In this document: one piece after another, positions 4,165-18,039 of the stretch | Position numbering within the stretch: the stretch's first letter is position 1 | How the letters are laid out: each line of letters begins with the position of its first letter | NCBI GenBank assembly: GCA_009103225.1 | Contig: RHPI01000810.1 | Location: 1,558,190-1,622,189 of the forward strand | Reading direction: 5' to 3' | DNA from: Chlorokybus atmophyticus | Taxonomy: Eukaryota; Plantae; Mesostigma and Chlorokybus algae | DNA length: 64,000 nucleotides | The notes under the pieces: model-generated | Databases searched by the model: none | Told to the model about the DNA's origin: nothing | The model's input: only the letters and a program-made list of their open reading frames with translations | Position numbers and translations under genes: made by a program

Positions 4165-7100
4165 ATGCTGACCGACAGTCAGCAATGCCAATTGTTAGGA
4201 CGCGCCATGGATCAGAACAGCATGGTATGGTTATTGACAATGTGCTTCGCTCTCCAAGACCGCCATGTGTCCTTCCAGGAGCTCGAACACCTGGCAGGGG
4301 GGTGGGCCGATCGCGTGCAAGAGACCAAAGCGGCACACACTGACCTCGAAATTGCCCACATGGAGGAGCAGGCAGCAGTCACTGTGGAGGACATCCCAGT
4401 GGTCGCCACCTCTTGGTCCCATGCCATTGAACCACTGGCTACATGACAGACGCGAGAACAACTGGAGGCTCTCCTCAACAAGTGGAGAAGTCAGTTCAGT
4501 TTCAGCGTAAGGGAATTGGGTGTTTGCTCAGTTTACCAGATGGACATCGAGTTGGTGGACACTAAACCGGTGTTTCGACGACAGTATCGTCTCTCCAAGT
4601 TGAAAGAAGACTTGGTGGAGCAGAGGTGCAAGGCTCTGCTAGATGCAGGCCTGATTGAGGATTCCACACCGGACTTTGCGGCCGTGATCGTTATGCCCCT
4701 GAAGAAGGATTCAGCAGGCAACTGGACAGACCGGCGCAAGTGCGGCGACTATCGCCCCCTCAACAACAAGATCAAACAAGACAGGTATCCAATGCCTACT
4801 GCAGAGGGTATCTTTGTTGATGTAGGAGACTGCACCGTCTTCAGCATCCTGGATATGCGATAAGGGTACAACCACATCGCCATCAAGGAGGAGGACAAGC
4901 ACAAGACCTCTTTCTGGGGCAACCGGCAGCTCTACCAGTGGAAGGTCATGCCCTTCGGACTGAAGAACGCTCCTGCCAAGTTCCAGCGCGTCATGGACAA
5001 AGCCTTGAAGGGGCTGGACTCCGCCCGATGCTATACTGACGACATTCTCATCTTCAGTTGCAGTAACGACGAGCACCTGCAGCACATCGAGGAAGCGCTG
5101 GAGAGACTCAAGGGGGTGGGGATGACAGTGCACCCCGACAAGTGCACCTTCTTCACTCGCAAGGTACCCTACCTAGGGCACATGATTGTGCCCCACGGTG
5201 TGTACGTACAGCAGGCAAAGGTGGAGGCTTTGGCGGCTATCCCTGCTCCCACAAACCTTATGCGTCTGCGTGCCTTTCTGAGCCTTGCAAACTATCATCG
5301 CCGGTTCGTGAAGAACTTCGCAAAGATCGCGCGACCCCTCAACGAGCTCGTGAAGAATGAGGTGGAGTTTGCGTGGAAGGGCCCACAGCAGCAGGCGTTT
5401 GAGGAGCTAAAGGGCAGGCTCACCACCGCTCCCATCCTGCAACGTCCTGACTACAACAAGCCCTTCATCCTCCACACCAACTGGAGCAAGCTTGGGATGG
5501 GGGCTGTGCTGGTACAGCACGATGAGAACAAGAAGGAGCGGGTGGTGTCGCACGCCAGCCGAAGCAACAACAGCGCTGAGGCCAACTACAGCAGCTACGA
5601 GGGGGAGTGCTTCGCTGCAGTATGGGCTATCTCCTTCTTCAGACCTTTCCTTTTTGGTCGACAATTTCAGCTGATCACCGATTATCAGCCACTCAAGTGG
5701 TTGATGACCAACCAACATCTGACAGGGGAAACTTGCTCGCTGGGCCCTGTTGCTGCAGGAGTATGACTTCGAGATCGACCACCGCGCCAGCCTCACCAAC
5801 TAGGACGCTGATGGCCTCAATTGTAACCCTCACCGCAGTACCAACAATGCAACGGGCTCGGCACGAGCTCGGCCCCACAGCAGCAACTCCCACTTTGGCG
5901 GCCATGTTTGCTGTTGCCGCGTTACGGTCAGGGCGCCAGATCAACACCACCTCAATGACAGAGGAGGTTCCTGCCCTTGAGTCTACCGACCCCATAGTAA
6001 CCACACCCCTAAGGGACGTCCATGCGGTCGACATCGAAGTCGACGACACCGAGCTGGCACCCACCGATACCAGGCAGGACATATGGCTGGACAAGCCATC
6101 ACTCTCCTTCCTTCAAAGTGGCCAGCTTCCCTCCAATATGAGTGCACGAGAGAAAGATCGTGTCAGTTAGCGCACCCGCCACGATCGGTGGGCGGATGAC
6201 AACGTGTACCGCCGCGTTCAGGACGAGGACAAGGAGGTGCCAACATCAGCCACACGCGAGGGCATCATCGCTGCCCTCCACACGGAGCTTGAACACTTCG
6301 GCGTCAAGCGTACCGTCAACCTGGTAAGGGCGCAATATTGGTGGTATGGGCTGTCCAAACAGGTGCAGGGGTTCGTTAGTTGCTGCCAGCAGTGTGACAT
6401 GGTACGCGTCAGCCTCACACGCAGCGCCACCTTGCACCCTCTGTCCATCTCTGGGCTATTCTATTGCTGAGGACTCGACATCTTGGGAGACTTGGCACCC
6501 TCGGCGCGGGGCAACCGCTACATCCTGGTCATGATCGAGCACTTCTTCAAATGGGTGGAGCTGGTGCCATTACCCGACAAGAGCAGCAGGGGGGGGCTCA
6601 AGCTTTCCTCTCCCATGTCCTCAGCCGGTTCGACAGCTGCGCTGCGGTCATCACCGACCAGGGCACTGAGTTCAGAGGGGAGTTCGACACCCTGCTGGAC
6701 AGATGCTACATCAATTATCACCATATTTCGTGTGACCACCCTCAAGCCGACGGTCTCGCCGAGCGGACGGTGCAGACGATCAAAAAGGCACTGCAAGTAC
6801 GTGCTGGATTATGAGAAGAACACCTGGGACGACCACCTTCCGTGGGTGGCTCTTGGCTACCAATTGTCGAAGCAGGCGGCTCTGCGCGAGTACAGCCCAT
6901 ACTACTTGCTGTTCGGGCGTCCGCCGTTGCTTTCCTTTCGTGCACATCAGGAAGTAGACCGTGTGGTGAACAACCTAGACGATCCCGACTGGATGCACCA
7001 CGACATCACCACACGTGCCACGCTGTTCAAGCACACCGTCTCAATGGCCTTTCACAACCAGCGCATCGCATTGCATCGTGACACTCTGCGCTACGAGTGC

Positions 7101-7530
7101 GTGCGGAGCGGCTTCTACAAGGAGCGCCTATGGCGGTTTCAAGCAGGTGACTTTGCCTACCGCATGGCAGCCATCAAGGACACGCTCGACACCTCCGTGG
7201 GCCGCACCGTCTACAAGGTACTCAAGGTGTACCCCATAGGAGTGCTGGACCTTCTTGGTCAGAATGGCGAGAGGTTGAAAGACAATATGTTGAACTGCGC
7301 ACCATGTCACCTCCCTTACATAGCAGGCTTTGCGTGCATCCAGCACCTTCGCCCCGCCCGCAGCACACTGTAAACGCTGCGGCAGCGCCGGCAATGACGC
7401 ACTTATGATGCTCTGCGATGGCTGTAACAAGGGCCTGCATTGCTACCTGGAGCCCCCATTTGACGCAATACCCATGGAGGAGTTCTGGTGCGACAATTGC
7501 CGCACCAACGGTCCTCCTCACCCGCATTAA
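4165..7530 (+). pseudogene. Ty3/gypsy pol (RT-RNase H-integrase-PHD), disrupted
   Basis: RT: RKCGDYRPLN, FSILDMR*GYNHI, MPFGLKNAPAKFQRVMD, YTDDILIFS. RNase H: ILHTNWSKLGMGAVL, YSSYEGECFAAVWAI. Integrase: HTELEHFG...CQQC zinc finger and core (DQGTEF, HPQADGLAER). C-terminal PHD: CKRC...MLCDGCNKGLHC...WCDNC. Several stops and frameshifts; no protease motif recognised. Confidence 0.95.
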
Positions 7531-7568
7531 CAGCTGAGCCCTGAAGCTGGTACCTCCCTAGAAGCTCA

Positions 7569-7808
7569 GGGGGGGGGGGGGGGGGGGGGGNATACAGCAT
7601 GTACATTAAGGAAGACACGGCCTCCACATGTCCGTATGACTTAGCAACAGTGGAGGGGCTCCACCAAGCATTCCTCGCCATACAAGCTGGGTTATCTTTT
7701 ACTTTTGCCACATGTTATAACATGTTGCAGCAGCAGGGCGAGCAAGCATGACTTTCCCTGCAGCGGCCCGAGACAGTGCGACCCTCGACTTCCCCCGACC
7801 CAACAGCT
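7569..7808 (+). mobile_element. Gypsy polypurine tract (poly-G) and 5' part of the probable 3' LTR
   Basis: A G-run follows pol directly and is followed by a segment (7596-7808) that recurs at 8419-8629. The downstream end of the LTR is not defined, and there is an N at 7591. Confidence 0.6.
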
Positions 7809-8418
7809 GTCATGCCTAGTGCCCACACGTCATACCAGCCTTCATCGGGCATGTCTACATCAAAACCGTCGCCCGGCCTACCAACATACCAACGCTCTCG
7901 CGTCCCTGACCAGTAGTTAGGTCATGACTTCAGGGTAGCTCACCACCATAGCCTACATAGGCACCGCGCGTAGCTGTTCAGTTGTGAGTTCAGTTATAAG
8001 TTGAGTTTTATATCGAGTGACAATCGCTGTGGAAACAGCCTCGATATGACCGTTAGCTTATGTTCTGAACAATTATCATTTGACTTGTACAAGTAGTCAC
8101 AGTGTTCACCGGATCAGCTGATGACACTGTGAGTGAGAAAGCTGAGAGCTTGTGAAACGACTTGAACTACGAACACGCCATCCCGGTTACCAAGAACCCC
8201 CTCACTGTGTGAGAGCCTGTGCATGCTCGTGTGTGCATCGTGCTTGTCATCGCTGTGGGCCTGGTGTGCCTGGTTGCAGAGTGCTTGTTGCATAGTATCC
8301 ACGTGTTTCTTGCTCATTCACCTCACTTGACAGTGTAACACATTTTCCGCTCATGCAAAGAACTGTGTAAACAGCACTACCTATAGTAGTGGCCTGTTGA
8401 CTGTGTGTCCTACAGTAA

Positions 8419-8629
8419 AGCATGTACACAAAGGAAGACGCCGCCTGCACATGTCCGTATGACTCAGCAACAGGAGCGGCTCCACCAAGCATTCCTCGCC
8501 ATACCAGCTCAGTTATCTTTTACTTTTGCCACATGTTATAACATGTTGCAGCAGCATGGCGAGCAAGCATGACTTTCCCTGCAGCGGCCTGAGACAGTGT
8601 GACCCTCGACTTCCCCCAACCCGACAACT
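8419..8629 (+). repeat. Diverged direct repeat of 7596-7808 (truncated LTR-like copy)
   Basis: Shared blocks such as CACATGTCCGTATGACT, CTCCACCAAGCATTCCTCGCCATAC and GTTATCTTTTACTTTTGCCACATGTTATAACATGTTGCAGCAGCA. Confidence 0.9.
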
Positions 8630-8634
8630 ACCGG

Positions 8635-8674
8635 TGTATGTATATATACATATATATATATGTATATGTATATG

Positions 8675-8714
<40 letters not shown>

Positions 8715-8768
8715 TATATATATATACATATACATATACATATATTTACATGCATATGTATATATATA
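8635..8768. repeat. (TA)/(TACA/TATG) compound microsatellite
   Basis: Visible TATA/CATATA runs. Confidence 0.9.
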
Positions 8769-9631
8769 CCGCGGTGTTTATGTATATTTAATTATACTAC
8801 TCGCATCCAAAAGATAAAGGTGAAGGTGGATTTTACCACTATAAAAGTGACTTGGGGAGGGAGACTTTGTTCGACTTGCCGTTTTGTCCAATCACATCGC
8901 GAGATTACCAGGCGGATGTTAGCATTATGCGCCCTGCGTCACCTGCTAGCGCAAGGTTGGTTGCGGAGTTCGGGTCAAGTCTTTACATGTTTACCTCATG
9001 TGCTACCACGGTTTACCAATTATTATACATGCAAGTCGCAGCCTTTTACTTGCTTGCCGCGCGGCCTGCTACTAGCAGGCCGTGGGGCAAGCCATGATTA
9101 GGCCGCGGGGTTGAACCGGCAATTTGGCAATGATGAGGTCGTAAAGTTATTATGGTTTGTAATAATGGAAGGATCAATCCCAGCGTTTTGAGTTAGTTAA
9201 GTATGAAGTCTCGTATCGTTGATGGAACCGGTCACAATTTCAATGATAATGTGTACAGCTTTAGCATGCAACCTGAATGCATTTTAATGTAATCGTCGAA
9301 TCCTCAATTGCGTTAAGGAGTAAAGACGCATTGTTAACAAATTAGTTACAACTGTAATTGCGATTTGGAGAAGTCTTTCCCATGGCCTGAACCCTTAATT
9401 ACGTAAACACCGAATCCTCAACGTTGTTACGGATCCGGTACTTACGATCGTCACCGGCGGATTGCCATTGGTGACAGGTCGCAATAAATTTCCGGCTGCA
9501 ACTACAACATATATACGAATCCGCAATAAAATTTTGCGAAATCCGCAAATAGTGTCCGGCTTCATTCATTACAAAGTTGCGGATCCAACCTGATTTGCCG
9601 AAACCCATTTCTACCGGAGCAGGAATGCCAT

Positions 9632-11195
9632 TTGTCGCAAGGCAGTATGAAAGATTACATAGCACATCTGATGCAAACCAGTATCCTCAGTAGGCTGGCG
9701 AACTCAATCGTGCGCTCTATACATGTGGTCTTTAATACGCCCAGATACCAGTCTGGTGTCAAGTCCTCGTTGCAACATACGCGTGACGAAGCGGTGGCAT
9801 CCTCAAGCAGTAGCCTCAACCTGGACACTGAACTGCCCAAGTCATGGCGTGATGTACTCAAGGATCGCAGTCTCAAGCAATCCTTGTGCGAGCTGAAAAC
9901 GGAGCACGTACCCACCATGGTGGCTCCGCACTTAAGGCTGGATCATGAGGTGGTGCTGTCCGGGGGGTCGGACTTGGAGCATGTGGGGGACCAGGCGCGC
10001 GTTGTGTCGCGCAGCTGCAACAACGACTTGTTTTTCCGGTTTATTGATGAATATATATGCAATCATGGGGAAGCAGACTCCAGAGCTGGGTTCATGCACA
10101 ATAAAGCGCCATACAACAAGGATCTGCCATATCGGTGATCTTCTCACTGGACACGGATGTCACTGAAATCGGCCTGGCAGTCAGCGAGACATGAGACATG
10201 TTATTTAAAGATGTGACAGTGCAGGTGGCACAACATTCCAAGGCTGGTGCCCCCCCCCCCCCCCCNCCCCCCCCCCATTCATCAGCTTGACTAGACTGCA
10301 GCAGCATGTGCGAAGCATGCACCAGATCAACGGCATCGCTGAAGGAAAGCGAGGATGGTTGATGCTGTTGGTGTATGCTGCAACTGGATGCGACTACACG
10401 TCCTTCATTTGAGGCATATCAAAGCAGTTTCTCTGGCGCAACGTGCTTGCGCAACATGCAGCTTTCATCACGGGCAATATAACAAACGAGGAGCATGAGA
10501 TGAGCTTCTTTGTGCTAAGGCTTATACGATGTGCTTACTTTTAGAAGTACAGGTCTTCATTTCACAATGGTATGCCAGCGTCCTTGTTCTTTAAACTCCT
10601 TGGCCCTGCAGCCACCACCAGCGACAAGCGATACTTGGCATAGTGGCTAGAGGCCATTCACAAGACAGTGTGGAATAAAACAGCAACCCCACGTGATACC
10701 ATTCCCACGGCCAATGCACTATGACTGCATTCCTTGCGCACCATCTACGCCATCAATATGTGGATGCAAAGCTGCAACCAAGACATGCGTTTGCCTGAAC
10801 TTCATGAATATGGCTACCATGAGGTAGATGGTGTTTGGTAGGCGGTGAAGGATCTACCGGAGAATATGGAGACAGCCATCTCTAGGCGTAACCGTTGTAT
10901 GCATGGCTGCGGCTGCAAACCGGAGAGGTGCAACACCAGAAGATGCAAGTGCAAGAAAGCAGGCAAGTAGTGCATCGAGAGCTGATCATGCATCGGTTGC
11001 AAAAACCATGGTGCTTACAGTTCTGCGGAGGCTGGATGCAGTACACAACAACCAACAACGACACTGCCAGGATCAGTTCATGCATACCAACCTCAAGATG
11101 CAAGAGAACAGTTTAAAGGTTGGTCGTCGACCGATTCCAATGCCTCCGATCCTGAGGTGGAGGACTTGACAAACATGGACATGTACGACATCTGA
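9632..11195 (+). mobile_element. Decayed XPG/FEN1-like nuclease + Cys8 (CXC) finger region of an Academ (AcademX-type) transposase
   Basis: Across frameshifts and stops: CNHGEADSR (10058), IFSLDTDV (10150), H3TH-like TGCDYTSFI*GISK (10383), IPTANAL*LHSLRTIY..MW..LPELHEYGY, and GCGCKPERCNTRRCKCKKAGK*CIES*SCIGCKN (10903-11007). The N-terminal DDE part is not seen. Confidence 0.7.
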
Positions 11196-11241
11196 CCATC
11201 TATGCCTCATCCCACAACATGCAGTGATCAGCGCCTTATCG

Positions 11242-11493
11242 CCCACTGCGTGTGTCCTAGCCTCCTTGAGACTAATGCTGTTGTTACCTGAGACCACGCT
11301 CTCAACTCCGACGGCTACTAACCCAATCGCCTCCCAAGTCGCTGACGCCCACGACTGCTCCACCACCACCGCCGCCGCCGCCGCTGCTGCTGCCGCGGGG
11401 TCTGCAGCGCTGATACACCAATGAGTTGCGCACATAATGCAGAATAGCTTGCGCGATTGCTAGGGTCGACCTCCAAAAATAAAGGTTTGCAAC
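11242..11493 (+). repeat. Left arm of a 252-bp inverted repeat
   Basis: Reverse complement of 13762-14013; no mismatch seen by eye, and the translated ORFs match. Confidence 0.95.
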
Positions 11494-11556
11494 ACCGCCG
11501 ACATTTTTGTGTACACTGCTCACTGCAATTTCTTATTAATGGTGTCAACCTGCAGG

Positions 11557-13352
11557 AGGGATGACGGCTGCGCATACTGCCAAGAAGGCTCTGGTTTGCT
11601 CAGTATGCCATGCATACACTGTCACCAACGGACAGGGCTCTAGAATGATCAGGCATCAAGGTGAATGCGCAAAGTATCGTGATCTCTATGCCTTTACCGC
11701 TGCATGCCGGCATCACCAAGTTGCCAGGCTTCACATCATCGATTGCCGAGCAAAGCACAAGTGCACTGTGCCAGAGTTTTACAAACAACAGTGCACTTGC
11801 CTCGAATGCTAATGTGCTCCATTCGAGTGGCATGGTGCCCCCATGCAATGCATGCCGTATGCACGACAAGGCACTATCACGAGTGGTCAGGCGGTCCATC
11901 TGATGTCGGTGAGCTTACTTCCGTGTGGTAGTCACTCAAATAGTCATGCGTAGCAGCTCTTCATCGACCACGCTGTCTGATTAGTCTTAACGCGCTCAAT
12001 ACGGCCGAGGCGACGCTGCGCAGCAGACCGTGGCTGCCAACATTCGTGCTTGCAATGACCAGCACAAGTTACACGTGCCACCCTGCAACGTGCACCTAGC
12101 ATGTTGACATGTGCATACAAGAGCGCGCAGACCTTCCATCTGAACGAACAATGGTGCACTGCAGACCGATGCACCAAGACATACACAGCTGGACAATTGT
12201 GTTAACGGTGCATGGCAGAAGGAGCAGCATTGGTTGGATGCGCAGTGATGGTGTATTGGCCAGCTGACAAGTGCTGGTACAAGGGGCAGTTCTATGCACA
12301 CAACAAAAGCCTAGGTAAGACCATTTGAAGTGTTACTTGATGGCAGTTGCATTATATCACACAGCAGAGCACTCATGGTGTCCCCTCCTATTGTAGGCAG
12401 GCACATTGTGAGATTTGTAGATGGAAACATCCAGCACTTGGTGATTGACAAGCACAACGTGGTGGTAGTCCACAGCGACATTGGAGACACTATGTGTATA
12501 CGCGTAGGTGGCAGCCGTGTGGCAACCAATCGCAAAATGGAACTTCCACTAGCCACAGCGTGCTTGTGGAGGCACTCAACGCCACTGCTGGTAACGCACT
12601 GTGCGCGACGTTCAGATGGACAACCACATCGCCCCAAAGTGTTGGACTTGTGTTGTGGTGGTGGTGGCGCAGGCATGGGACTACATCGTGCTGGCTTTGA
12701 TGTTACAGGACTTGACATCATGGACCAACCCGAATACCCTTTTCCATTCATCAAGGGGGATGCGACGCATTCAGACCTGGCACACTATGACATCATTTGG
12801 GCTAGCCCCCCGTGCCAGGCATTTGCACGCTGCATACCAGAGCAGCAGCGTAGGCAACACTCCAGCTATTGAAACCATAGTACACTACTGCACGACCTGC
12901 GGGCAAGGCTGCTTTTAAGTGGCAAACATTTTGTCAACTAGAACATCCTTGACGCGTCGCATCACCTGAATCACAACATGGCGTTGTGTGGGACCATGTT
13001 TGGTCTCTCCACCTTCAGGCACCGATTGTTTGAGACGTCCCCATCACTGGCTGTTGACCTCCACTACGGCCACGCCGCAAAGCACATAGGAAACCTGTCT
13101 GGACGCCGCAACACCGGCAAGGTGGGTGTGTCGCAGTCGCACACAGTAATGAGGAAACAGATGTATTGTGTGTATGGGCAAGCAGCATCAAGAGGTTACG
13201 TGAGTGGGTGGAGCATGGCTTTCGGCATTGCCTGGATTGAAGACGAGTATACGCTCGTGGAGTGCATACCACCGGCTTATTCGGAGTATGTAGGCGGGCA
13301 ATTGTTGGCTGCACTGGGTTACGTAGTTAGCAATGAGCCGGTGTCCTGGTAG
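11557..13352 (+). pseudogene. Spliced Tudor-domain / C5-cytosine DNA methyltransferase fusion pseudogene with upstream Cys/His clusters
   Basis: Tudor half LVGCAVMVYWPADKCWYKGQF (12230-12314) is joined by a GT-AG intron (12315-12396) to RHIVRFVDGNIQHLVID. MTase motifs: I VLDLCCGGGGAG, IV WASPPCQ, VI FVN*NI, then LCGTMFGL, FRHRLFE and IPPAYSEYVGGQLL. In-frame stops at 12870 and 12939. Confidence 0.8.
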
Positions 13353-13761
13353 TGACAACAGTGCTTAGTGCATACAGGTGAAAAACGTGTCTGTCAGTTG
13401 CACGAGTGTATTGCATCCACCAGGACTCATCTGTATCCGAATACACGAGGCATTCATGCCACTGCAACCTCATTCACAACGGGGCTGTCGGTAACACATA
13501 AAATCTGCAATGCGCAGCACATTGTATCCTGCTGCCAAGTCACATGTGATCACATACATATTACAATTTTGTTGCTTACAAGCTGAGTGCACTAGAGCAC
13601 AGCAGAACACAGCAGCACAATACAGCATATGCTCGCATTTTATGCTCAATGCCCACACAGAATTCGCTAGGAACCCTTGTCCACGGGAGCATCTTCTGAA
13701 GGCAAACATACTAACAATCAAACAATGCGCAAATGGGACTTGCCCTCCCCCCCCCCAATGA

Positions 13762-14013
13762 GTTGCAAACCTTTATTTTTGGAGGTCGACCCTAGCAATC
13801 GCGCAAGCTATTCTGCATTATGTGCGCAACTCATTGGTGTATCAGCGCTGCAGACCCCGCGGCAGCAGCAGCGGCGGCGGCGGCGGTGGTGGTGGAGCAG
13901 TCGTGGGCGTCAGCGACTTGGGAGGCGATTGGGTTAGTAGCCGTCGGAGTTGAGAGCGTGGTCTCAGGTAACAACAGCATTAGTCTCAAGGAGGCTAGGA
14001 CACACGCAGTGGG
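13762..14013 (-). repeat. Right arm of the 252-bp inverted repeat
   Basis: Reverse complement of 11242-11493; its outer end abuts an N at 14014. Confidence 0.95.
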
Positions 14014-16845
14014 NGGCAGGGCTTCCCATTGCTCCGACCCAGTCGACGCTAGCTGCAGGCACGGCCTCATCCACCAGCATTCATATCATGAGCACCTGCA
14101 GAACACATGCACATGACATCACATCATATGCATACACATACACAGCACCGTCACGCTCCACCACTGCCTGCCAGTGCATCACACATGCATGCAGACTGGC
14201 CAGTAAACAAGTGTGCCAATTAAACATCACCTAGTGGAGGGTGAAGCCTGTTGCCAATAAGCGATTTCACATGCACACAACTACCACCGGACTACGACCC
14301 CAAACATTGTACACACCTGGTCCTGCCGGCACGATGGGATGCCAGCCATCGCCCTCAATATGTGGAGGAGGATGAGGTAGGCCAGGGTTGTCATCATAAC
14401 CATCGTCACCTCCCATCCACGGATGAAAACTCCACTGACCGACCTCAAACGGCAACCACTCCGTGTCATGCCACTGCTCAATCCAGTGACGCCGGCGACC
14501 AGGATCCGCATCACACTGAGTACCAATCACCCAGCGCGCAAGTAACGCGCTGCCTACTTCATGCTCCACTACTAAGAGGTCACTTCCCAAACGCTGTGGG
14601 AAGCAAGCCCTTGCCGAACACGATGCAAGCTGAATCTGACAAACCAACCCCCCCCGGGCAACTCAATATGAAGCTCCCTCACACCTGGTGCAGATCCCAC
14701 TTGCGATCCAGCTACATGCACCGGCCAACCAATTGACACCCAACAAGTGTCAACAACCACACATTCATCTGCGACAACATACAATCACCATCACAATAGA
14801 CCAACAATGGCATTCATTTGCTCGTAGTTAGTCTGATAGAAAGACTGACTGCGCCTGATGTATGGCAGTGAGGCGCTCAGCGAGAAGATAATGCCGTCGA
14901 GGCCTGCGCCGCTAGCGCCTACATGCCCCGCGATCGACTCACCGCCCACGTCGCCCGCGATCCCGCCGCCGTCCACATTAAACCCCGCACCAACCACACC
15001 AACAGCAACCACCAGCATACGAGCAAATGGCGCCAATTCAACATGGCACAGATGCCGAAAAGCGGTAAGATGGACATAAACGACTCTACCGCCCAATAGC
15101 CCACTAACTACGTCAACCGCCGTCTACTCGCAAACAATAAACGGCGGTCGCACTGATAACAGCGCTGTCAAACCCTGACACAACAGCGTAGCACACCCCA
15201 TTGCCGACATCTGAGCACGCTCACTCGATACTGATCTAGCACAGTTAATGTGAGTACATCGCCTTCGCAAAGCGCATTTCGTACAATCACATCAACGTCG
15301 CTAGTCGCAGTTCAGCGCAGCATTATATAAGTCACCACACGCTACTTGACGCACTAAATACGCCGCTCACGCCGCACTCAGCGCTGAACGGGCCGGCATA
15401 AGCTTTGGCCATCAAAAGAACCATTGGCGATCGGATTGTATGGTCGATTTGTGGTTAACTGTATGTACCTTCCCGTTACACACCACCTGCAGCGCAACGC
15501 ATCCGGGAGAGGGAGCGGTCAGCCTGGGAGGTCTTCCAATACATCAGCAAGCATAATGACTATTACGACGCGAAACAATTGCTTGGCCCCCGCTGTTGCC
15601 ATCATGATGCCGTTGCCATAAATTAATATTGATATGCAGCACCTAGTCTACCAGCCATTTGCCTTGTCCACATTATGAGCTTCACTTTGAGTTTGCTTGT
15701 TTAGCAACTCTATTGTTGGTTTTGCATACGCACAGCATAAACTATATGCAACCAACCACATGCACTTGCATACTGCGTACACGACCACATGGCTTAACCT
15801 ACCCTCTACCCCAACTCCCACTTCCCCCCGTGTTAGTCATGCATGCACAGCAGTCCATTTACCTGCACCGCGGCTGTTGTGTTTGTTTGTAGCATGTTAA
15901 TTGAAATGTGTTTGCAAGCATGACCGCATACATGGAATGCGCGCAATTGTTAGGTCATCACATCATCTCTATAGTAGTGTCAAAGTACACATGCATTATG
16001 CGGATAGGCATGGTGCAGCACGGGCAGCAAACATATACGTGTGCATTATTACAGAGGTTGCGCATCGTTGCATGTATGTAAAAATTGAGGCACCTAAATT
16101 ACAAGCACATTTCAGGCAATGATTAACAACAAACACAACAACAATGACCAACATATACGCGCTAATCGAAGCTTAACCACCAAAGCTTAAACACTAAGCT
16201 AAATGGGCTAGCTATATGTAGGATAAGCGCTAGGATGTTATGTATACCCACACCTGTTGTTCATGTCTGCCCCAACATTTGCTGCCCCGCTGCTTGATGC
16301 CCCGCTCCCTCGCATTCACTCCGCTGATGCCCTTAGCTACAAGCACATAGCCAAGCATGCCCTTGCCAATGCCCTAATAGTTCGCTTCTGCCCACCTTGC
16401 ATGTGAGTACACTCGCATCAGAACCACCGGAAAGCCTATGTGTAGTTGTGTAATGTTATACACATAGATACTAGCACAAGCCAGTCTCATGTATACCAAT
16501 GGGTCATCTCGTCGTGAACTATCACGCGATGCGCGACAATGTTGCTGGTGTCATGCAAGAGGCGGGCTGCACGACATCTTGCAAGCATACATTTGTATAA
16601 GATAAGCGCGTGACTGTGTCTCAAGTTTTAGGGTGCCACCCTCGACACTAGCGACCTTGGCAGTCATTGAGCGCCAAGATGGTTATATGGATATTGATGA
16701 GCTGGACGGGTAGAGGTTCGCACATGCTGCTTGACATTATAGGCAACAGGCCACTACCTAGCTGATAAGCTGGATGATGTTGCTGAGCAAGGATGAGATT
16801 CGCACGTGTTGCTTATGATCATATGCAACTACTACTCTACCACCC

Positions 16846-17155
16846 GCCGGCAGACGAGTTTGTCCCACTGGCGGCCGAGACCCACGGGTCGCTCGTGGGA
16901 GCGTTCAACGCGCTCATCGCGAGGTGCGCCAAACAGGCGGTGTACCAGCGTGGCCTGGCGCTGGGGCGTTTGAGCGGCTTTATAGCCATGTACCGGCAAC
17001 GGGTGGCGTGCGCGCTGCAGCGAGCGCAGGGTCTGGCGCTGCTGGAGCGCGGGGCAGCAGCGGTGGCAGCGGTCCCGGGCTGGGCGCCGCTGCAGACGGT
17101 GCCCGCAACGACGCAGGAGGACGCTGTCCTCGCTGGCGCTTCGTGTAGGATCTAG
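16846..17155 (+). mobile_element. 3' end of a restriction-like-endonuclease (RLE; CRE/Zepp-like) non-LTR retrotransposon ORF
   Basis: FVPLAAETHGSL...YRQRVACALQRAQ matches the FxPxAxETxGxL...RQRxSxALQRxN C-terminus of RLE elements. The segment is sharply GC/CpG-rich compared with its flanks. Confidence 0.7.
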
Positions 17156-18039
17156 TACTTTGCATGTGTACGTGCGCTAGCGCACTGGCGTAAATGTGCG
17201 TGTTGTTGGTTAGACATGGCCATGTTCCTGGACCTTTGCCTGTGTCTTTTGAAAATGTGCCAGTAGTGTTTGTGTGGTTGACTCTAGCTGAATTAGCTGC
17301 ATGGTGTGATAAGCGCGACAAGCATTGCACTATTACAACCACTTCCTAACAGACATGAGGTGCGGTACTTCATGCACCCAAGCTACCTTGCGGCAAGCAA
17401 AACACATGCATGCAATGATATGCTAGCATGCCTGTGCTTCACGGGTTGGTTAACATTGGTTAGCTGCTGCCTTCTCTTGCTGCTCGACACTTGCATTGCA
17501 CATGAGGCAATTAGTGTGGTGTAGGATAGGTGGTGAAGGCCCCAGAGGTAATAATTGTGTTGATGTTGGTGGTTGGTGGTTGTGCTTGCGTGCTTGTCAC
17601 TTGCAAATGAGCATGTTTGTGGAATGACTACGATGCATACCCTATGCGTAGCTGCCTACCCAATACACATAGGAAGACTTGTTACAGCAGGGGGTATAAC
17701 CGTGGCTTAGCCTATCCTATCCTCAAGACATGCTGAATAAAAGTTTATTGCCAATGAAATCATGTGGTTGGATGGCACGGCCATTGACAAACTTGTTCGC
17801 CACTTGCGTGCGCCGAGCGAATGCCTATAAGCTGGAAACGCGGTGTGTAGCGCGCTTTGTCATTGGGTAAGCACTTCTATGTCGCACCTTCCAGAACTTG
17901 CAGGCCATCGCCATCATATCCATGGCAATGTGCATTGCTGCGGCAGCAACGCACAGTGGTGCTAAATGATTGTGCATATCATTGTAATTGAATGTATCAA
18001 AGAAACACGCATTCCACTGCACAGAATAGTGATACTCTA

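Follow-up and report, generated by a model that had tools for sequence, protein, structure and literature searches.

The window, a 64,000-nucleotide stretch of the Chlorokybus atmophyticus genome, is eukaryotic DNA in which genes are densely packed and their GT-AG introns short; it carries genes for an SNF2 protein, a plastid-type MlaE permease (which we take to be TGD1) and an NTPase (presumably HCF101-like), a gene content indicative of a green alga. It also holds the remnant of what was probably a single gene, in which a Tudor domain split by a predicted intron precedes a compact C5 cytosine methyltransferase of phage type. The features at and around this locus are as follows.

9530..11195, plus strand: decayed gene whose reading shows nuclease motifs of PIN/XPG type and ends in a CXC cysteine cluster, just upstream of the Tudor-methylase (six-frame reading by eye)
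11242..11493, unstranded: left arm of an inverted repeat, 252 nt, 100% identical (self-blastn)
11557..12205, plus strand: Cys-rich stretch in the frame of Tudor exon 1, with five stops
12206..12314, plus strand: first half of a PDS5/RDM15-type Tudor domain, with cage Trp 12257 and Tyr 12278 (PDB 7DE9, E 2.1e-4)
12315..12396, plus strand: predicted 82-nt GT-AG intron (cage spacing, host-like signals)
12397..12475, plus strand: second half of the Tudor domain, with Phe 12414, Asp 12420 and Asn 12426 (residue spacing after the predicted splice)
12476..12629, plus strand: open linker, ~50 codons long; ATG occurs in frame at 12492 and 12537
12630..13352, plus strand: compact phage-type C5 cytosine methyltransferase, pseudogenised (motifs, phrog_363, short variable region without an MBD)
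13762..14013, unstranded: right arm of the inverted repeat, flanked by a run of C and by the single-N gap at 14014

The methylase is read in a single plus-strand frame, 12315-13352, which is interrupted by a TGA at 12870 and a TAG at 12939, the latter replacing the glutamate of the ENV motif (*NI in the window copy). The preliminary description of this DNA had claimed one frame split by these two stops, which our reading confirmed, and the motifs it listed are all present, namely motif I (VLDLCCGGGGAG), motifs II-III (GLDIMDQPEYPFPFIKGDA), motif IV (WASPPCQ), LCGTMFGL..RHRLFE and the C-terminal motif (IPPAYSEYVGGQL). Both DLCCGGGG of motif I and the catalytic SPPC are found, with the catalytic Cys intact at 12813. 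ENV is kept in 15/15 proteins of the MBD group and 12/12 of the sister group, two sets of relatives described below, and the window copy departs from the MBD group at 23 of 93 group-conserved columns. With these two premature stops (12870, and 12939 in place of the ENV glutamate), the window copy is a dead pseudogene that cannot be active. The CpG observed/expected ratio is 0.68 at the locus versus 0.71 in the host SNF2 gene.

The N-terminal part had been proposed to fit the PDS5/MSH6-type Tudor pattern, a proposal to be dropped if no Tudor match was found. A match was found for the unspliced first-exon ORF (12206-12325), whose best PDB hit among 177,635 sequences is 7DE9 (E 2.1e-4, the next being E 0.19), the Tudor domain of RDM15 (PMC8184781). 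Pfam returned a weak Tudor_KDM3B match for 12206-12316 (E 0.31) and none for 12206-12325, while the second half alone matched nothing in Pfam and nothing in the PDB below E 0.8. The assignment to this type thus holds for the first exon and for the rebuilt residue spacing, whereas the second half has no match of its own. In RDM15, the H3K4me1 site is described as W616, Y623 and Y641 with D643 and D645, and the H3R2 pocket as E647 and Q654 (PMC8184781). The likeness of the window domain to the RDM15/PDS5C Tudor (PDB 7DE9) and the plant MSH6 Tudor lies in the sequence of the first half and the spacing of cage and acidic residues; unlike RDM15/PDS5C, it is joined to a methylase.

The two halves are joined by a predicted 82-nt intron with the donor CTAG/GTAAGA at 12315 and the acceptor CCCCTCCTATTGTAG at 12396. 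Among 43 candidate GT-AG pairs (two donors, with acceptors 40-400 nt downstream), 20 allow the reading frame to continue uninterrupted into the methylase and three satisfy a looser cage pattern; only the splice 12315-12396 (1/43) restores the exact RDM15 spacing, with an aromatic residue at +25 and Asp at +27 from the cage Trp. After this predicted splice, W, Y(+7), F(+25), D(+27) and N(+29) fall at the offsets of the RDM15 cage and acidic residues, Tyr641 being replaced by Phe and Asp645 by Asn. At the offsets of Glu647 and Gln654, an ungapped count gives Gln and His, respectively, and these residues of the H3R2 pocket are not matched. The splice signals are those already described for this intron, and they are of the spliceosomal type found in six host introns (69-427 nt, with similar signals); all of the latter end in CAG, compared to TAG for the predicted Tudor intron. 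A contig of run X1, one of two runs compared with the window, covers 12277-12468 and represents a second Tudor copy with 11 differences, ten of which are listed: six are intronic, and all four exonic ones alter a residue. In this copy the acceptor reads CAG, and Asp replaces the Asn found at +29 in the window. From the cage together with the Asp and Asn/Asp at +27/+29, we infer that the window Tudor would read H3K4me1 as RDM15 does.

The methylase domain matches phrog_363 with an E-value of 1e-18 and PF00145 with E 0.0016, under the curated cut-off. Its phage matches comprise 308 records, mostly from actinophages (Mycobacterium and Streptomyces phages), all below 60% identity with the best placed at 39%; the 20 matches listed range from 36 to 39%. 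Compact phage and prophage C5 methyltransferases of phrog_363 share its motif set, its length and its short variable region, but the window enzyme differs from them by the intron-split Tudor in front and by four motifs of an algal and giant-virus group. Database searches gave 5,889 relatives, the five best of which are 280-344 aa proteins, and 7 among the 120 listed carry PF01429. The nearest relatives are proteins of 280-390 aa whose variable (target-recognition) region, lying between RHRLFE and the C-terminal motif, accommodates an MBD; when ten of them were combined into a profile, this region matched MBD2 in the PDB (E 3e-9). Named members are GAQ92615.1 of Klebsormidium nitens and UNPLg00428 of Chromochloris zofingiensis, and the core identity between the window and this group reaches 53%. 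These MBD-insert enzymes are the closest sequences to the window and have motifs in common with it, yet they bear an MBD in the variable region and no Tudor, the reverse of the window. The variable region of the window has 77 aa, compared to 111-190 aa in the insert groups, and is covered by an identical run contig (13008-13161); of 348 proteins measured, 308 have a variable region of 50-79 aa. The MBD-insert profile found no match at the window locus. Among 19 longer relatives, none has a Tudor, PWWP or chromo domain in a search that is weak for intron-bearing genes, and no PWWP match was seen in the window or in 93 proteins scanned.

These relationships modify the earlier view of the enzyme. 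Its description as a compact type common in actinobacterial phages and prophages stands as to type (phrog_363 and the phage matches), and not as to kinship, as its nearest relatives are MBD-insert proteins and not actinophage enzymes. A direct origin from an actinophage was rejected, the algal group being closer. The exclusion of MET1, CMT, DRM and DNMT2 is borne out by the phage type (phrog_363, E 1e-18); membership in these families or in DNMT3 was rejected, with no such matches and only 15-19% identity between a sister-group model and its top structural matches. The suggestion that a prokaryote- or virus-derived enzyme gained an intron and a reader inside algal mobile DNA has to be modified: the algal MBD-insert group lies nearest to the window methylase and a related group occurs in a giant-virus bin, so that no direct jump from a prokaryote into the window locus took place. 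Furthermore, as the nearest relatives carry an MBD, the enzyme family already pairs with a chromatin reader, and it is likely that the family swaps chromatin readers to choose its methylation sites.

Four motifs of the algal group, picked by eye after alignment, are all present in the window methylase. Their frequencies are 15/15, 12/15, 12/15 and 7/15 in the MBD group, 8/12, 11/12, 0/12 and 0/12 in the sister group, and 0, 0, 0 and 1 among 286 short relatives. In a 90-row tree with the insert columns, which took in 60 of the 286 short proteins, the window falls inside a 17-row MBD group with an SH-aLRT of 89; without the insert columns, this nesting has a support of 45/27. In a 49-row tree of 180 core columns, which left out two partial MBD proteins, 5/12 sister proteins and 34/60 short ones, the short prokaryote-type enzymes lie on one side in 97% of 200 bootstrap trees, with a split support of 57/84 and the bootstrap unsettled. 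Placing the window outside the two insert groups is also compatible with the data (p-AU 0.55). The presence in the window of two motifs specific to the MBD group favours the loss of an MBD, which, given the weak tree support and this outside position, is a possibility for the window lineage.

The sister group consists of 12 proteins (P0123, P0201, P0220, P0293, P0295, P0297, P0299, P0300, P0304, P0310, P0312 and P0313) with a longer, divergent insert at the same place as the MBD. At least one member of the group, L305:4853-6058, belongs to a giant-virus bin (G001) that has PolB and a weak capsid match. Profile comparison by hhalign aligns the sister insert with the MBD. As it has no MBD match in Pfam or the PDB (only E 0.08-0.5 with the MBD-insert profile), and a fold search with the whole model listed no MBD, the insert is MBD-like at most. 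The sister-group model (pLDDT 89) adopts the C5 methylase fold, with VIA Z 16.5 and an rmsd of 3.9 over 219 residues aligned to DNMT3B, and Foldseek searches with models of the relatives gave DNMTs and M.HaeIII as top matches; the fold is thus seen on models of relatives from both groups, not on the window's own protein. Among viral structures, the sister-group model comes closest to a C5 methylase from Pithovirus. When viral contigs, metagenomes and prokaryote genomes were scanned, the best 80 matches kept were all short-type enzymes. Among 359 methylase ORFs from 353 viral, metagenome and prokaryote loci, a group motif was found in one, that of L305, and an MBD insert in none; a longer DNA pattern search found nothing.

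The decayed gene at 9530..11195 has a Pfam match to TCR/CXC (E 0.016) and no match in the PDB. In the ESM Atlas it resembles cnidarian and arthropod clusters at 0.92 and XRN_N at 0.83, which we treat as a lead only. Many diverged contigs of both runs lie over 9000-9600, consistent with a multi-copy nuclease-like gene. This gene may resemble the Academ(X) DNA transposons, which feature an XPG-like nuclease and a cysteine-rich finger besides a DDE transposase and terminal inverted repeats. The target duplication of Academ is 3-4 bp (PMC10045372). No transposase was recognised near the locus and no element ends were found, the 25 longest inverted pairs in 7500-18000 being the 252-nt repeat and a TA microsatellite. 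The methylase gene may have travelled with the transposon-like nuclease gene upstream, for which we put the odds a little below even. A run contig (11411-11604) crosses the inner end of the left arm of the 252-nt repeat with 0 differences, and none joins the 13762 side of the right arm to 13761; the right arm is possibly an assembly artefact. We rejected the idea that the repeat marks the two ends of an element carrying the methylase, since it stops at an assembly gap, shows no clear target duplication and has only its left junction in a run. Within the left arm there is a site resembling an acceptor, as well as an open stretch rich in Thr and Ala.

The Cys-rich stretch at 11557-12205 includes a donor-like GTGAG at 11909 and has no match in Pfam or the PDB; with no match, its identification as a PHD finger was rejected. 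Judged from the reading frame, it is possible that the stretch represents further upstream (zinc-finger) exons of the Tudor-methylase gene. A broken Ty3-type retroelement at 4447-7530 ends in a PHD-like cysteine pattern (by eye), and is followed by a 216-nt direct repeat (7593-7808 and 8416-8629, 91%). At 16787-17155, a 122-aa ORF without a Pfam match resembles, by eye, the C-terminal end of a non-LTR retroelement protein. The 42 nt at 15439-15480 reach a summed contig depth above 120 in both runs, with loose ends on both sides, and are a high-copy short repeat or an element end. The composition of the locus is like that of the host.

Whether the two domains formed one protein depends on the stretch between them. 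The sequence is stop-free from 12397 to 12869, from the second Tudor half through into the methylase; by chance, 8% of local frames stay open over 233 nt and 18% over 160 nt, lengths comparable to the linker. Since ATG 12537 lies 31 codons ahead of the methylase, near the distance at which 8 of 15 MBD-group proteins start (21-35 residues before motif I), the methylase could have its own start there. The locus might then comprise two adjacent genes, a single-exon methylase preceded by another gene, from a transposon or captured from the host, that contains the intron-split Tudor, with a frame shared by chance or through a lost stop. The Cys-rich frame upstream could belong to such a Tudor gene, and a Pfam scan of 93 proteins, the 19 longer relatives all among them, gave no second fusion, a blank that is weak because the databases searched favour intronless genes. 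However, the 233 nt ahead of the methylase have escaped both stops and frameshifts although the locus is decayed, and the nearest relatives as a rule have a reader fused to the enzyme, whereas the window copy is without theirs. We regard two separate genes as rather improbable, and a fusion of Tudor and methylase in one gene as probable.

The fusion is read from the window assembly alone, because no contig of the two runs lies over 12469-12773 and no joints were seen. The runs contain only 5-10% of the window's words, the assembly has single-N gaps at 10266 and 14014, and the perfect inverted repeat ends at the latter, all of which would suit a contaminant or a mis-assembled chimera. Nevertheless, 10267-14013 is free of N, run contigs are identical to the window over 11411-11604, 12318-12468 and 13008-13161 (though the runs may be the source sample), the composition is host-like, and none of the methylase ORFs examined from prokaryote genomes (81) or metagenomes (80) shows a group motif; an artefact of this kind is very improbable. 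A real fusion might also have been left by a giant virus that had become endogenous, or have arisen by exon shuffling and been dead on arrival, in either case without ever serving the host as a chromatin-guided methylase. The sister-group gene in a giant-virus bin and the Pithovirus enzyme as best viral structural match agree with a viral relic, as does the report that viral-origin orphan DNMTs are often silent (PMC12344493). But the long ORFs recognised in the window, six of them scanned with Pfam, belong to the host or to retrotransposons and no viral hallmark was noticed, the Tudor is split by a host-like predicted intron, and the runs hold diverged copies of both the Tudor and the methylase, one methylase copy having mostly silent changes (4/5 changed codons, among six listed differences). 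We consider such a relic quite unlikely. At a probability of roughly 60%, we favour the window locus as the dead copy of a once-working Tudor-methylase fusion of the histone-read, DNA-write kind.

We propose that such a fusion was a spliced algal gene encoding a PDS5/RDM15-type Tudor ahead of the compact phage-type C5 methyltransferase. The Tudor would dock on a methyl-lysine of histone H3, for which the cage and the pair of polar residues behind it suggest H3K4me1 as the probable mark. The C5 enzyme would then methylate nearby cytosines, presumably to 5mC. With its short variable region, the enzyme would read little sequence of its own and leave the choice of sites to the reader; the relatives with an MBD would, by contrast, recognise 5mC and add further 5mC. 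The family may have moved from phages or bacteria to giant viruses or mobile DNA and then to green algae, the window lineage having replaced the MBD or never having had it. H3K4me1 marks gene bodies in plants (bioRxiv 10.1101/2024.10.15.618488). On a broader scale, we tentatively suggest, with the odds against it, that a phage-derived C5 lineage spread via giant viruses and green algae by trading sequence recognition for exchangeable readers: mostly an MBD inside the target-recognition region, forming a 5mC spreading loop, and here an intron-split H3K4me1-type Tudor on an Academ-like transposon, methylating active gene bodies or the element itself.

A 2011 review by Iyer, Abhiman and Aravind is said to list algal methylase fusions. 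N4CMT of bdelloid rotifers likewise joins a prokaryote-derived DNA methylase to a histone-mark reader in a 'histone-read-DNA-write' arrangement; it is an amino-methyltransferase that makes 4mC and reads silent marks by a chromodomain, and it is encoded by an intact host gene and has been assayed (PMC8885841), whereas the window holds a pseudogene of a C5 enzyme whose Tudor is predicted to read H3K4me1. ChloroDNMT is similarly a lineage-restricted C5 methylase (in chlorophytes and charophytes), often with the royal-family reader PWWP (PMC12344493); the window differs by description, having a PDS5-type Tudor and no PWWP match, with a PWWP in 0/19 longer relatives. Cytosine methylases also occur in algal mobile DNA in KnitGypsy-Dnmt3 (PMC5890265), SymbioLINE/DIRS and the EpiLTRs, the last of which add a chromodomain (bioRxiv 10.64898/2026.05.21.726589). 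Those are DNMT3-like, DNMT4-like or orphan domains in retroelement ORFs, intronless in Klebsormidium, in contrast to the predicted intron, the phage-type enzyme and the DNA-transposon-like neighbour of the window. Orphan DNMTs are described without companion domains (PMC12344493), and the supplement of that paper gives six for Klebsormidium, one of which may be the Klebsormidium MBD protein. The word 'Tudor' is absent from the main text of PMC12344493, PMC5890265 and bioRxiv 10.64898/2026.05.21.726589, and its mention in PMC11244446 concerns KDM4. Our search, confined to the open literature, found no report of a Tudor fusion or a variable-region MBD in the compact C5 family. The principle of a methylase combined with a chromatin reader is already known, as in N4CMT and ChloroDNMT; the Tudor plus phage-type C5 layout and the MBD-insert layout are new to the open literature searched.

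Eukaryotic DNA methylases are thought to derive from repeated prokaryotic or viral captures followed by the gain of readers, and few intermediate stages are known. The present family would supply several: the plain enzyme of phages, one with an insert in a giant virus, algal ones with an MBD in the target-recognition region, and here a Tudor-fused form with a predicted intron. If the Tudor was indeed for H3K4me1, it would point the methylase at gene bodies, which bears on the origin of algal gene-body methylation. The window locus is dead and single, which limits the claim, and the weight rests as much on the MBD-insert family, whose intact members, small and made of one chain, are candidate read-write 5mC enzymes. 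Apparently intact C5 methylases with an MBD2-like insert are P0002-P0006, P0018, P0021, P0063, P0144, P0189, P0289-P0291, P0303 and P0380, from Klebsormidium, Chromochloris and other assemblies. Within P0378-P0382, the Klebsormidium gene model P0380 (GAQ92615.1) has a duplicated MBD-methylase joined to a 145-aa ORF, a HIT-family hydrolase according to JGI; this ORF is also found alone, on contigs equal in length to those that carry P0290 and P0166, and seems to travel with the MBD-methylase. Among the short-type relatives, P0143, P0145, P0017, P0204, P0268 and P0292 have two methylase copies fused in tandem, and others are fused to AlkB-type, ParB, WhiB or DUF3631 domains.
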